NCBI RefSeq assembly: GCF_009557235.1
Contig: NZ_CP045650.1
Location: 90,001-122,000, forward strand
Reading direction: 5' to 3'
Length of the DNA: 32,000 nucleotides
Source of the DNA: Acinetobacter wanghuae
GTDB lineage: Bacteria > Pseudomonadota > Gammaproteobacteria > Pseudomonadales > Moraxellaceae
In this document: positions 3,461 through 28,719 of the stretch, piece after piece
Position numbering within the stretch: position 1 is the stretch's first letter
Layout of the letters: each line of letters starts with the position of its first letter
Translations under genes and position numbers: made by a program
Notes under the pieces: model-generated
The model's database searches: none
The model's input: the letters and a program-made list of their open reading frames with translations, nothing else
Told to the model about the DNA's origin: nothing

Positions 3461-4639
3461 TTAACGTCTGCGTCCCCAGAATTTATCATCATTGAGTGCA
3501 CCTTTAGGCAAGATGTCTTGCTCAAAGATCGAGGTCGGTAAAGACACCGTACATGCACAGTTTGGAATATCTACGATACCGCCGATACGACCTTCAACAG
3601 GTGCAGCAGTCAGCAGCATGTAAGCTTGAGAACCTGTAAAACCAAAGTTTTCAAGATATTTAATCGCTTTCAAACACGCTTGACGGTAGGCAACAGTTGC
3701 ATCTAAATAGTAGTTCACGTCATTTTCAACGCTAATACCTTCAAACGTTAACCATTGGTCATAGTTTGGTTTCACATTACTTGGCACAAAGATTGGAGAA
3801 TCGATGTTGTATTTCGCCATCCCGCCTTTGATCAGGTCAAAGCCAACACGGGTTACACCGTCCATTTCAATGGCACCACAGAAACCGATTTCGCCATCCC
3901 CTTGTGAGAAGTGAAGGTCACCCATCGAGAAGCCGGCGCCCTTTTGGTAAACAGGGAAGTAGATTCGGCTACCTGCGGCTAAATCTTTAATATCGGTATT
4001 ACCCCCATGTTCACGTGGCGGTACAGTACGTGCAGCTTCTGCCGCCATACGATCAAATTCAGCACCCGATACACCGCGAAGCACCGCAGTACGTGGATCA
4101 GGCGGGTTGGCTTGACCTTTAGGGACAAGTAAAGCTTCACGACGATTCCATTCTTTTAATAAGTCATGAGATGGCAGCGTACCCATTAAACCCGGGTGCT
4201 TTAAGCCTGCAATACGAACGCCTGGAATGTGACGTGAGGTTGCGAACAAACCTTTTAAATCCCAGATCGCTTTATCAGCTTCAGGGAAATAATCTGCAAG
4301 GAAGCCGCCACCGTTTTCTTTGGCAAATACACCCGAGAAACCAACATCTGAAATGGGTTGAATATCGAGTAGGTCGATTACCAATAAGTCACCTGGTTCA
4401 GCGCCTTCCACATAGAAAGGTCCTGTCAGGGGATGCGCACGTGTTAAATCGACATTTTTAACATCAGAAACATCATCTGTATCTTTAATTTGGGCATCAA
4501 GGAAGTCCAAACTTTCAATCAGAATCTCTTCCCCTGGCTTTACAGAAGTCAAAAACGGCAAATCAGGATGCCAACGGTTATGACCAATCTCCGCTTGTTC
4601 AGCCAGCGGAACCCCCGGTTTAATTTTGATGTGTTGCAT
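3461..4639 (-). CDS. fmdA: formamidase / acetamidase-family amidohydrolase
   Basis: 392-aa ORF. Acetamidase/formamidase-family signatures seen by eye (HNRWHPDLP near the N-terminus, REHGGNTDIKDL). It sits with fmdB and an amide/urea ABC importer. Confidence 0.85.
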   Translation of the reverse strand: MQHIKIKPGVPLAEQAEIGHNRWHPDLPFLTSVKPGEEILIESLDFLDAQIKDTDDVSDVKNVDLTRAHPLTGPFYVEGAEPGDLLVIDLLDIQPISDVGFSGVFAKENGGGFLADYFPEADKAIWDLKGLFATSRHIPGVRIAGLKHPGLMGTLPSHDLLKEWNRREALLVPKGQANPPDPRTAVLRGVSGAEFDRMAAEAARTVPPREHGGNTDIKDLAAGSRIYFPVYQKGAGFSMGDLHFSQGDGEIGFCGAIEMDGVTRVGFDLIKGGMAKYNIDSPIFVPSNVKPNYDQWLTFEGISVENDVNYYLDATVAYRQACLKAIKYLENFGFTGSQAYMLLTAAPVEGRIGGIVDIPNCACTVSLPTSIFEQDILPKGALNDDKFWGRRR

Positions 4640-25874: not shown

Positions 25875-26312
25875 ATGAAAAAAATTGCGCTCGCTTTAGG
25901 ATTATTAGGTTTAACCGCATTTGCCAATGCAGCTGATCCTTTAAATGGCACAGTATGGAAAACAATTGATGACAAGACCAATCAACCCAAAGCCATTGTA
26001 AAATTTACTGAACAAAAGAACGGCACATTGTCTGCTAGCATTCAACAGGTCTTAACGCCAGGTGAAGAAAAAGCATGTTCAAAATGTGAAGGTCCATTCC
26101 ACAACAAATCTTTAAAAGGCTTAACCATTGTTAAAGGTTTGAAAAATAAAGGTGGAACACAGTATGCAGACGGTCAAATTCTTGACCCAAGCTCTGGCAA
26201 AACATACAAACTTAAAGGTAATGTTGCTGAAGGTGGCAATAAACTCGAACTTCGCGGCTTCATCGGTGTGGCAGCGTTAGGTCGTAACCAAACATGGATT
26301 CGTGCAAACTAA
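25875..26312 (+). CDS. DUF2147 domain-containing periplasmic protein
   Basis: 145 aa with a signal peptide (LTAFANA). Characteristic GQILDPSSGKTYKLKG ... LELRGFIGVAALGRNQTWIR. Confidence 0.75.
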   Translation: MKKIALALGLLGLTAFANAADPLNGTVWKTIDDKTNQPKAIVKFTEQKNGTLSASIQQVLTPGEEKACSKCEGPFHNKSLKGLTIVKGLKNKGGTQYADGQILDPSSGKTYKLKGNVAEGGNKLELRGFIGVAALGRNQTWIRAN

Positions 26313-26387: not shown

Positions 26388-26738
26388 TTAAGCTTGAATG
26401 GCGCGAATTGCGTTTTCATCAAAACCCGCCAAAAATCCTTGCGTGGTTTGAATAATCGGACGTTTAATTAAGCTGGTATGTGTTGTTAATGCGGCAATCA
26501 GCGCATCTTCACTTGAAAGCGCTTGTGCTTGTTCTTCAGGGCTGAGTTTGCGCCATGTTGTACCTTTTTTATTCAGTACCATATCCTGTCCTAAAGCATC
26601 TAGCCAAGTCTTCACTGTCGCGCTATCAATACTTTGTTTTTTATAGTCATGAAACTCATAGCTGAGACCCAATTCCGTCAATAGATCGAAGGCTTTTTTC
26701 ATCGAGTTACAGTTTTTAATGCCATACACTTTGAGCAT
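26388..26738 (-). CDS. yffB: ArsC/Spx/MgsR-family protein, YffB-like
   Basis: 116 aa. It begins MLKVYGIKNCNSMKKA (single-Cys YffB type) and contains GTTWRKL and LIKRPII. Confidence 0.8.
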   Translation of the reverse strand: MLKVYGIKNCNSMKKAFDLLTELGLSYEFHDYKKQSIDSATVKTWLDALGQDMVLNKKGTTWRKLSPEEQAQALSSEDALIAALTTHTSLIKRPIIQTTQGFLAGFDENAIRAIQA

Positions 26739-26930
26739 ATCAACAACCTAAAAAAATACTTATGAATGTATGAAGCTTAGCGAAATTTTAAGCTTGCGAC
26801 TATGCTTTTTGCAGCGTATAGAATTAAAAGAAAATGAAAGCATTTTTCAGTCATTTGATTGTCATAAAAGAACGATAAAATAAGTTCGATTGAAAAGATA
26901 AGTACAATAAAAGCGTTGTTCTAAATGTAG

Positions 26931-27095
26931 AAAACCCGCATTTAATCATCCTGATCATGCGGGTCTCAACTTAACGTCCAATGTTACATCCTTGAAAAAC
27001 CAATTCATCGTGAGTCGGTTTTTGTATTCATCCTACGGCGTCCAATCCTTTTGTGTCATCCTGACATGTCCTTGTGCCGTGCGCCAATAATGCGC
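26931..27095 (-). ncRNA. candidate CsrA/RsmA-sequestering sRNA (CsrB/RsmY/RsmZ-like)
   Basis: The minus strand carries eight GGA triplets within 123 nt, four of them as AGGAUG. Some can be placed in short hairpin loops. The RNA ends in the stem ACCCGCAU/AUGCGGGU plus UUUU (26931-26964), whose loop also contains AGGAUG. A possible -10 element, TATATC, lies at 27102-27097. The 5' end is approximate. No long ORF is present. Confidence 0.6.
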
Positions 27096-27153
27096 TGATA
27101 TAAGCATGATTTAAATCTACAAATGCGTCTTGTGATGTAAGCCATTGACTGTA

Positions 27154-27179
27154 ATTGAGTGAACAATCGTTCACTCAAT
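27154..27179. promoter_or_regulatory. perfect 11+11 bp palindrome between the xthA stop and the candidate sRNA promoter
   Basis: ATTGAGTGAAC-aatc-GTTCACTCAAT. No U-tract follows on the minus strand, so it is a poor intrinsic terminator. Its centre lies roughly 70-75 bp upstream of the guessed sRNA start. Confidence 0.4.
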
Positions 27180-27209
27180 ATATACATTCTATTGAACGTG
27201 CTATTTCAC

Positions 27210-28028
27210 TTAAAGTTTATAATCAATGATGACCGGTGCATGGTCGCTAAACCACGTTTCTTTATAGACCCAAGCATTGACAGTGCGCGCTTTCCAATCT
27301 GGCGAGCAGGCTTGGTAATCAATACGCCAACCGACGTTTTTTGCACGAGCTTGCCCACGGTTTGACCACCATGAATAGACTTCAGCATCTTTACGAACTT
27401 CACGGAACGTATCGACATAGCCTAAATCATCGTAGATATGATCGAGCCATGCACGCTCATGTGGCAAGCAGCCTGACGCTTTTTGATTGCCTGACCAATT
27501 TTTAATATCAATGCGTTTATGCACAATGTTGTAGTCACCGCAGACAATCACGGATTTATCTTCATCACGCCATTGTTTTAAGATTTTCTTATATTCATCG
27601 AGGAAGTGATCTTTACGTGCTTGCGCTTCATCACCTGATGAACCCGATGGTAAGTAAAGAGAGCAAATATGCGCAGTTTTTTCTAAACCTACATCAAATT
27701 CTGCGGAGATAAAACGACCTTGAGAATCTGCTAGTTCAAAACCTAAACCATCCGTTACAGACACAAATGGTAAACGGCTATAAATAGCAGTGCCTGCATA
27801 ACCCGGCTTTTCAGCAGGGAATAGGTGGGTGTACCAGCCTTCAGGCTTAAATTTATCGGTCCATTGTTCATGGTTAATACGAGACTCTTGCATGCAGATG
27901 ACATCGGCATCTGAAGTTGCCATCCAGTCAAAAATCCCTTTTTTTTCAGCGGAACGCAGACCATTTACGTTGATTGATACGACACGTAAAATTTTTTGAT
28001 CACTTGGATAGCTACTCTTTGGTATCAT
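27210..28028 (-). CDS. xthA: exodeoxyribonuclease III
   Basis: EEP-family nuclease with [27 protein letters not shown] and WFSDHAPV. I prefer the ATG at 28028 (MIPKSS..., 273 aa) over the tracked start at 28070, which would overlap pyrE. Confidence 0.9.
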
Positions 28029-28068
28029 GCTCAGGTTTAACCTCAAACTTAAAAAAATGGAGCACCTC

Positions 28069-28719
28069 ATGACAGCGCAAGCGGCTTTTAATCCACAAGC
28101 TTTTATCGAACTCGCATTATCACGTGGTGTGCTTAAATTTGGTGAGTTTACTTTAAAATCGGGTCGTGTGAGTCCTTATTTTTTCAATGCTGGTTTGTTG
28201 AATGACGGCGAAGCCTTGACTGGCTTGGCATCTGGCTATGCGGCAAAATTAACAGAATGCGATAACGTTGAAGTAATTTTTGGCCCTGCGTATAAAGGTA
28301 TTCCATTTGTTGCGGCAACTGCTGTAGCGTTGTCTCAAAATCATGGCATGAGTGTACCTTGGGGATTTAACCGTAAAGAAGCCAAAGATCATGGTGAAGG
28401 CGGTGTTCTTGTTGGTGCTGCGGTTGAAGGTAAAAAAGTGTGGATCATTGATGATGTGATTACTGCCGGTACTGCAATTCGTGAAGTCGTCACCATTTTG
28501 AAAAATGCAGGCGCGCAAATTGCAGGTGTGTTGGTTGCGTTAGACCGCCAAGAAAAAGGTCAAGGCGAATTGTCTGCCATTCAAGAAGTTCAAAAAGAAT
28601 TAGAAATTCCTGTGCATGCTTTAATTACCATGAAAGATTTGATGGATTATTTAGATGCCAAAGGCGATAAAGATGCTTTAGCGAAAATGGAAGCGTATCG
28701 TGTGAATTACGGCATCTAA
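28069..28719 (+). CDS. pyrE: orotate phosphoribosyltransferase
   Basis: [19 protein letters not shown] and the PRPP loop [16 protein letters not shown] at 28069 after a TGGAG RBS gives 216 aa (the tracked ORF opens at 28027). Confidence 0.92.

Follow-up and report, generated by a model that had tools for sequence, protein, structure and literature searches.

We analysed a stretch of 32,000 nucleotides (nt) of Acinetobacter wanghuae (contig NZ_CP045650.1, positions 90,001 to 122,000), referred to as the window and numbered from its first letter, with a focus on one spacer that very probably encodes a small RNA (sRNA) of the Csr/Rsm type, a sponge for CsrA. The window has a G+C content of 41% and is most closely related to uncultured Acinetobacter bins, A. 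cumulans and A. gandensis. Two minus-strand genes flank the 471-nt spacer (26739-27209). The upstream gene (27210-28070, minus strand), divergent to pyrE, encodes a crc/exodeoxyribonuclease-III-like EEP protein (NCBIfam xth, 228 bits), which against PDB entries scores 261 bits with the Neisseria AP endonuclease NApe (2jc5), 224 bits with Pseudomonas Crc (4jg3) and 66 bits with E. coli ExoIII. The downstream gene (26388-26738, minus strand) encodes an ArsC/Spx-family protein (NCBIfam TIGR01617, 87.7 bits, above the cutoff). An earlier note on this DNA had called these neighbours xthA and yffB; its xthA is the crc/exodeoxyribonuclease-III-like gene next to pyrE, and its yffB the ArsC/Spx-family gene. 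The predicted sRNA body, of ~150 nt (26931-27080, minus strand), begins 130 nt 3' of the EEP stop codon and on the same strand.

The minus-strand sequence of 26931-27095 quoted in the earlier note matches the window exactly, and the eight GGA triplets that it had counted are found at 27071-27069, 27061-27059, 27048-27046, 27043-27041, 27033-27031, 26991-26989, 26979-26977 and 26951-26949 (sites 1 to 8 hereafter), each facing a plus-strand TCC at the listed start. Neighbouring triplets are spaced by 10, 13, 5, 10, 42, 12 and 28 nt. Four of them stand in the context AGGAUG, and CAAGGAUG, which had been likened to the consensus obtained for CsrA by systematic evolution of ligands by exponential enrichment (SELEX), is confirmed in the RNA. 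Altogether, ~125 nt of this strand hold 8 GGA, 6 AGGA and 5 AGGAU motifs. When GGA was counted in 130-nt segments along both strands of the 32 kb, the mean was 0.94-1.12, the plus-strand maximum was 5, and a count of 8 was reached only here; for AGGAU, the 5 copies compare with a mean of 0.07-0.10. The GGA count being the unique maximum of the window, the cluster lies far beyond chance.

A genome scan with the EEP protein yielded 80 loci, almost all of distinct Acinetobacter species. In 75 of these crc-like loci, the spacer or 3' stretch contains 8-12 GGAs in the sense orientation as against 0-12 (median ~3) in the antisense orientation. The RNA adjoins the crc-like gene in all 75 carrying loci, and the ArsC-family gene follows downstream in 73 of them, the other two being short contigs that end before it. 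The five loci devoid of the RNA consist of one truncated contig of 853 nt and four more distant genomes in which no ArsC-family gene follows. Two Moraxella species are without the RNA, a convergent gene lying only 85 nt after the EEP gene; in these loci (L203-L205; Moraxella haemolytica and M. nasicaprae) a TetR-family gene precedes the EEP gene, the convergent gene is phosphoribosyltransferase-like, and there is neither room for an sRNA nor a pyrE/ArsC arrangement.

The alignments described below comprise the window and the 75 other Acinetobacter loci carrying the RNA (76 sequences). Aligning the spacers, a check that the earlier note had proposed, brought out both conserved GGA motifs and compensatory stem changes. 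Seven GGAs are invariant (76/76) and the eighth, site 5, is present in 75/76, amid neighbouring positions that vary. Conservation forms a single, sharply bounded block that runs from a palindrome through an invariant GCATTAT to the U-run of a terminator, and drops sharply after the U-run. A covariance model (R1) matched the window at 26930-27081 (160.7 bits, E 1e-43); neither elsewhere in the window nor within any of the 80 loci did it find a second copy. As had been claimed, the spacer is without a credible open reading frame (ORF), the only ones being short mechanical ORFs of 32-48 codons whose position and length are not kept across orthologues. For ORFs in and around the RNA, the length differences are not multiples of 3, and 18 of the 76 orthologues lack any sense-strand ORF of at least 25 codons. 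The reading that the spacer encodes a small protein was rejected since these ORFs are not conserved.

The secondary structure was tested for covariation with model R1 and an alignment of the 76 sequences (A3). Being fitted to the model structure, A3 favours that structure, and the covariation of the central hairpin and of helices 1 and 2 is visible in a plain MAFFT alignment too. Compensatory changes support four helices. Pairing holds in 97.7% of cells, both sides have changed in 11 pairs and 106 cells, and the covariation score of 0.175, which none of 500 shuffles reached, compares with at most 0.051 for slid-partner controls. Helix 1 (27035-27080, minus strand) joins ACGGC (27080-27076) to GCCGU (27039-27035), encloses GGA sites 1 to 4, is paired in 98.4% of cells and shows G-C replaced by A-U, on both sides, in 6 genomes. 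Helix 2 (27054-27066, minus strand) is the previously proposed hairpin UGUC-AGGAU-GACA, which folding indeed predicts; its pentaloop holds site 2, and its 4-bp stem is 99% paired, with compensatory changes in 2 pairs (UA/GC/AU/CG). Helix 3 (26995-27023, minus strand) is a central hairpin with an A-rich 5' arm, a U-rich 3' arm and no conserved GGA; it forms 6-13 bp in 76/76 despite occurring as 74 distinct sequences among the 76 genomes, and all 7 modelled pairs are changed on both sides. Helix 4 (26931-26966, minus strand) is a two-tier terminator in which ACCCGCAU pairs with AUGCGGGU and then AUC with GAU, followed by a U-run (15 pairs, 98.9% paired). This terminator, ending in UUUU and carrying AGGAU in its loop, had likewise been proposed, and it is predicted by folding; a simple terminator scan missed it because its loop and bulge exceed the limits of the scan.

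In single-sequence folds, the mean probability of being unpaired, P(unpaired), ranges from 0.67 to 1.0 over all eight sites. Site 1, in the context A(A/G)GGA, lies in the 5' part of the helix 1 bulge (0.80), and sites 3 and 4, in AAGGAUUGGAC (27041-27048), lie in the single-stranded 3' part of the same bulge (0.67 and 0.75). Site 5, UAGGAUG, belongs to the linker after helix 1 (0.80). Site 6, UCAAGGAUGU, is the one nearest to the SELEX-type consensus (0.70). Site 8 occupies the apical loop of the terminator (1.0) and stays single-stranded in the minimum-free-energy folds of all 76 sequences; sites 2 and 8 both sit in loops of covariation-supported hairpins. Site 7, UGGAC, may be held in a loop by a mini-hairpin of 3 bp, for which two registers can be drawn, register B (GAC/GUU) being compatible with 76/76; both registers are nearly invariant and are thus uninformative on this mini-hairpin. 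The folding check proposed in the earlier note thus shows the GGAs to be mostly unpaired, in loops, linkers or bulges.

Upstream of the RNA, an invariant or near-invariant GCATTAT (27087-27093, minus strand; 76 genomes) includes the predicted -10 box CATTAT (27092-27087) and is followed by a variable discriminator of 5-6 nt and then by a conserved CAC. If CATTAT is the -10 box, A27080 is the first transcribed nucleotide, and it is there that we predict transcription to begin in this organism; the conservation from CAC to the U-run, like the R1 match, delimits the sRNA body. Of the interval 26931-27095 put forward in the earlier note, the 3' end therefore holds, coinciding with the terminator at 26931, and the 5' end moves to near 27080; the segment 27095-27081 is most likely promoter (-10 box and discriminator), not transcript. 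A putative weak, T-rich -35-like element (27110-27115, minus strand; TTTAAA here, TTTATC or TTTTTA elsewhere) has its conserved Ts 17 nt upstream of CATTAT. Further upstream, at about -61 to -46, the block CTTACA-N4-AAGACG (27126-27141, minus strand; CyTACA-N4-TTGnCG in the genus) is of high information content among 66 fixed-register promoters. A sigma-54 promoter was rejected, there being no conserved GG at -24, and the single internal promoter-like site returned by a simple promoter scan was judged spurious.

The outermost element of this module is a 26-bp palindrome, ATTGAGTGAA-CGATTG-TTCACTCAAT (27154-27179, minus strand; genus consensus aTTGAGTGAACA-NN-TGTTCACTCAAt), a candidate activator site whose centre lies at about -86. 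Between this centre and GCATTAT, 75/75 genomes keep 72-74 nt (standard deviation 0.3), whereas the crc stop codon is 13 to 211 nt away, and the gap between the terminator and the gene that follows measures 89 to 489 nt. This fixed spacing to the -10 box, set against the variable distance to the stop codon, makes the palindrome part of the sRNA promoter rather than of the upstream gene. Covariation is seen between its symmetric positions, without a bias of G-U over A-C (26 vs 42), which favours a DNA site for a dimer over an RNA hairpin. A crc terminator or other RNA hairpin was rejected for the palindrome on the grounds that it has no U-run, shows no strand asymmetry and keeps its distance to the -10 box only. 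The core GTRA-N8-TYAC, with its spacing, is common to the palindrome and the GacA/UvrY box TGTRAG-N6-CTYACA, but the two diverge at the inner and outer positions. A GacA box ending in the conserved CyTACA was also considered and rejected, since positions -73 to -68 show no conserved TGTAAG, the left half that such a box requires.

Searching metagenomes for AGTRAACANNTGTTYACT gave at least 120 matches. Among the matches listed, at least 5 are crc-linked Acinetobacter copies, no copy in an Acinetobacter-like contig being of another kind, and the others come from unrelated contigs; the scan says nothing about the Acinetobacter regulator. Among the matches listed, the unrelated contigs that were inspected carry apparent operators upstream of lexA-like, recA-like and TetR-family genes. 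The 18-mer AGTRAACA-NN-TGTTYACT fronts these genes, sometimes in two copies (L149 about 4480, L122 about 9157, L146/L177, L158 and L140), which suggests operators of the GAAC-N4-GTTC kind, namely SOS boxes and TetR-type sites. Its position before such genes indicates a motif type used by several families of dimeric repressors.

The class to which the RNA belongs was examined along the features by which Kulkarni et al. 2006 (PMC1488887) recognised CsrA-regulating sRNAs. This comparison revealed that (i) the RNA is intergenic and non-coding (471-nt spacer, no conserved ORF in 76 orthologues), (ii) GGA, AGGA and ARGGA motifs are dense on one strand, with a unique maximum in the window and a strand bias in 75 orthologous spacers, (iii) a Rho-independent terminator is present (15-pair stem plus UUUU), at which conservation ends, (iv) the GGAs are exposed in a conserved structure at all eight sites, and (v) in place of a canonical UvrY/GacA-type upstream site there is a different 26-bp palindrome at -86, which has the GTRA-N8-TYAC core only. 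The RNA resembles RsmX, RsmY and RsmZ of Pseudomonas (Rfam clan CL00106), as well as CsrB and CsrC, in being a short RNA with many GGAs in loops and linkers, a terminator and high abundance, and presumably in the way it acts; it differs from them in showing no detectable sequence or structure homology, in its genomic context, and in having only the core of the GacA box. RsmY and RsmZ are the closest in size (~150 nt) and in number of GGAs (8).

In A. baumannii, an RNA designated sRNA2 was reportedly annotated by Kröger et al. in 2018. In strain AB5075 it spans 154783-154939 on the minus strand, i.e. 157 nt, with a mean of ~85,000 transcripts per million (TPM; Hamrock et al. 2024, PMC11472050 supplement), and it stands in the second row of a table apparently sorted by mean TPM, i.e. 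it would be the second most abundant transcript (PMC11472050). The 'arsenate reductase' gene ABUW_RS00695 lies at 154228-154578, also on the minus strand (mean TPM ~160; PMC11472050), and the gene order ABUW_RS00695, sRNA2, ABUW_RS00700, pyrE follows from the table of RNA immunoprecipitation (RIP) counts of Intorcia et al. 2025 (PMC12802169). A. pittii, which belongs to the Acinetobacter calcoaceticus-baumannii (ACB) complex, carries the RNA at 3919-4066 of locus L202 (154.7 bits with R1). In ACB-type loci, 212-214 nt separate UUUUC from the ATG of the ArsC-family gene, as against 204 nt from the annotated 3' end of sRNA2 in AB5075; provided that the spacing is kept within the ACB complex, the sRNA2 annotation ends 8-10 nt beyond UUUUC and starts no more than 1-2 nt from CAC. 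By gene order, coordinates and ACB-complex sequence, the window RNA can be taken as the orthologue of sRNA2. The two share the gene order with divergent pyrE, the strand, the length class, the CAC start and the terminator end; they differ in species and in the sequence of the central hairpin. As the sRNA2 annotation maps onto the conserved ends, transcript, strand, size and 5' end have experimental support in a congener, and the ~160-nt minus-strand transcript that had been predicted finds its counterpart in the 157-nt sRNA2 at the orthologous locus of another species (PMC11472050, PMC12802169).

The locus had also been noticed before. Among the four CsrA-regulating sRNAs that Kulkarni et al. 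2006 had predicted for Acinetobacter sp. ADP1 (PMC1488887) is 'rsmB', which CSRNA_FIND placed between crc and ACIAD3528, all on one strand (PMC1488887, Table 2). By its crc neighbour and its orientation the window RNA matches this 'rsmB'; alike are the crc flank, the one-strand orientation and the basis of the prediction (intergenic position, AGGA/ARGGA density, terminator and loop GGAs), and the name implies no homology with Erwinia RsmB. Being the orthologue of an annotated transcript and the subject of an old prediction (PMC1488887), the RNA is already known, contrary to the earlier note, which had considered it hidden and perhaps unannotated.

Other A. baumannii sponges provide a further comparison. 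According to a review (PMC13516227), three of them, CsrB, CsrC and CsrD, were found by Singh et al. 2025, and CsrB was enriched in CsrA RIP-qPCR (PNAS 2026 paper, PMC13643297). The RNA sRNA97 (csrB; AB5075 3495801-3495969, 169 nt) is similar to sRNA2 in genus, size and expression profile, both peaking in the same two Hi-GRIL-seq samples (PMC11472050), and differs in locus. It lies 81 nt downstream of the 'endonuclease' gene ABUW_RS16775, on the same strand (AB5075 3495801-3497172). This arrangement parallels that of sRNA2 after the exodeoxyribonuclease-III-like gene, and an old duplication of a nuclease-plus-sRNA unit is one possibility.

Overall, we estimate at about 0.8 the probability that the spacer gives rise to an independently transcribed, ~150-nt minus-strand RNA of the Csr/Rsm type, acting as a CsrA sponge. 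The proposal of such a sponge made in the earlier note is supported in each of its sequence-level elements, namely motif density, invariance, loop or linker placement and terminator, together with the promoter module. The estimate draws on the observed motif density, conservation, structure, promoter-module geometry and gene-order orthology, and, for the existence and abundance of the transcript in A. baumannii, on the literature. Binding and titration of CsrA by the window RNA are what the arrangement of its motifs suggests. The RNA would be made from its own promoter, with a -10 CATTAT, a weak -35 and upstream elements, the 26-bp palindrome at about -86 probably being bound by a dimeric activator, and transcription would stop at the intrinsic terminator, which presents a GGA site of its own in the loop. 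The GGAs would be presented in hairpin loops (sites 2, 8 and perhaps 7) or in linkers and bulges (sites 1 and 3-6), and eight of them, spaced by 5-42 nt, could accommodate up to about four CsrA dimers per RNA molecule. CsrA bound in this way would be drawn off the GGA-containing leaders of target mRNAs, and the abundance of the RNA would make it an effective competitor.

Several observations weigh against this reading. There is no canonical GacA box (TGTAAG-N6-CTTACA) upstream of the RNA, and the ADP1 'rsmB' was itself given as an 'additional prediction' with no conserved UvrY/GacA-type upstream site (PMC1488887). A search of the literature, the text of Singh et al. 2025 not included, found no text linking sRNA2 to CsrA or assigning it a function, and Intorcia et al. 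2025 gave the name csrB to sRNA97 only, sRNA2 keeping no name beyond its label (PMC12802169). No csrA gene is found within the 32-kb window; A. baumannii and A. baylyi do have csrA, which is important in both (PMC13643297, PMC12455638). Finally, Rfam 15 gave no gathering-level match in the whole window, nor with the RNA alone, in agreement with the earlier statement that no curated model covers such RNAs here. In a permissive scan, the only Csr/Rsm match was to CsrB (RF00018), at 8.4 bits vs a gathering threshold of 71 (E = 5, 24 nt). Membership in the Rfam families CsrB, CsrC, RsmX, RsmY and RsmZ was hence rejected, none reaching a gathering-level score with window, spacer or RNA alone.

Other functions for the RNA were weighed against a CsrA sponge. 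It could be an Hfq-associated base-pairing or dual-function sRNA, in which the GGA stretches act as seeds for UCC segments or the A-rich arm binds Hfq, CsrA titration being secondary or absent; we consider this improbable. A conserved A-rich tract does lead into the central hairpin, albeit without a clean AAnAAnAA or (ARN)n repeat, and the invariant unit is made of eight copies of one trinucleotide in loops and linkers, not of a single extended seed. Pseudomonas RsmY binds both Hfq and a CsrA-type protein, and Hfq binding is compatible with a sponge role. In exponential phase, an Hfq pull-down recovered 1377/3436/24 sRNA2 reads from tagged vs 222/40/45 from untagged samples (PMC12802169), which also counts against the sponge; this modest enrichment would fit an Hfq-linked role, although the very high abundance of sRNA2 could explain background recovery. 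Chimeras of sRNA2 were seen in Hi-GRIL-seq control samples, their authors leaving open authentic interactions (PMC11472050), whereas in the part of the Hfq RIL-seq tables available sRNA2 appears in 8 lines, some of them for the separate 'as-sRNA2', as against 119 for csrB (PMC12802169). A decoy for Hfq/Crc in the manner of CrcZ, the RNA used by the Pseudomonas Crc/Hfq pathway (PMC12802169), would suit the position of the RNA beside a crc-like gene in every carrying locus. Decoys of that type, however, rely on repeated A-rich motifs, whereas the repeated invariant unit here is GGA/AGGAU; Intorcia et al. proposed sRNA99 as the CrcZ-like RNA of A. baumannii (PMC12802169), and the flanking protein is nearer to a true AP endonuclease (261 bits) than to Crc (224 bits). 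Of all the alternatives we regard this one as the least credible.

The possibility that there is no separate gene, and that the conserved block belongs to the crc/exodeoxyribonuclease-III-like mRNA as its 3' untranslated region and terminator, possibly as a processed 3' fragment, appears hardly more probable than the CrcZ-like decoy. It would be in keeping with the location of the RNA, 130 nt past the stop codon and on the same strand, and the palindrome after the stop could in principle form an RNA hairpin. Against it stand the fixed palindrome-GCATTAT spacing of 72-74 nt next to a stop codon distance of 13-211 nt, the lack of both a U-run and a G-U vs A-C asymmetry (26 vs 42) in the palindrome, and the A. 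baumannii data, in which sRNA2 (mean TPM ~85,000) exceeds the ArsC-family gene (~160) by about three orders of magnitude and is annotated as a discrete RNA of 157 nt with its 5' end at the conserved CAC. A CsrA sponge transcribed from its own promoter remains our preferred interpretation.

Some features around the sRNA are worth recording. Past the terminator and ahead of the ArsC-family gene, an imperfect inverted repeat of the form ATGTCA-N4/5-ATGACA(T) is conserved in most of the 76 spacers; in the window it reads ATGACAATCAAATGACTG (26848-26865, minus strand), and it has a counterpart in A. pittii (L202 about 4139-4165). Just beside the equivalent of this repeat in A. baumannii lies 'as-sRNA2' (154720-154767, plus strand), a Hfq-chimera-forming RNA. 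The repeat may serve the ArsC-family gene, or a transcript from the opposite strand, as an operator or promoter. On the other side of the locus, the mechanical ORFs of the EEP gene (286 aa) and of pyrE (230 aa) are arranged head-to-head and have 44 nt in common (28027-28070). Homologues are shorter (272-274 aa for the EEP protein, 216 aa for PyrE), so both real starts probably lie further in, leaving divergent genes with a short shared promoter region; that of the EEP gene is probably ~12-14 codons downstream of the ORF start. Beyond the ArsC-family gene, a 145-aa ORF (25875-26312, plus strand) has no NCBIfam match, its counterpart at the A. pittii locus being a DUF2147 (PF09917) protein, and the order DUF2147, esterase (Abhydrolase_3), GGDEF is kept between the window species and A. 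pittii.

Conditionally essential in A. baumannii, CsrA governs a virulence switch there as well as metabolism and tolerance to desiccation. These roles make RNAs that set the level of free CsrA central to the biology of that species. The present locus corresponds to the second most abundant A. baumannii transcript in one published dataset, yet it is without an Rfam model. To what was known, our analysis adds a genus-wide structural alignment, the invariance of the eight motifs, predicted transcript boundaries and a rigid promoter module with a palindrome. The gain is incremental, as the RNA class, the locus and the transcript had already been described, but structure and boundaries suffice for annotation throughout the genus and for the design of promoter and GGA mutants. 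It is conceivable, though unlikely, that the crc-linked RNA is a fourth CsrA sponge, dominant by abundance, GacA-independent and driven by a dimeric palindrome-binding regulator. If so, it would represent a second independent input into the Acinetobacter Csr network, and one that, given the invariant crc-like linkage, could tie to carbon-catabolite control. The regulator that binds the palindrome is the point that could raise the interest of this locus.

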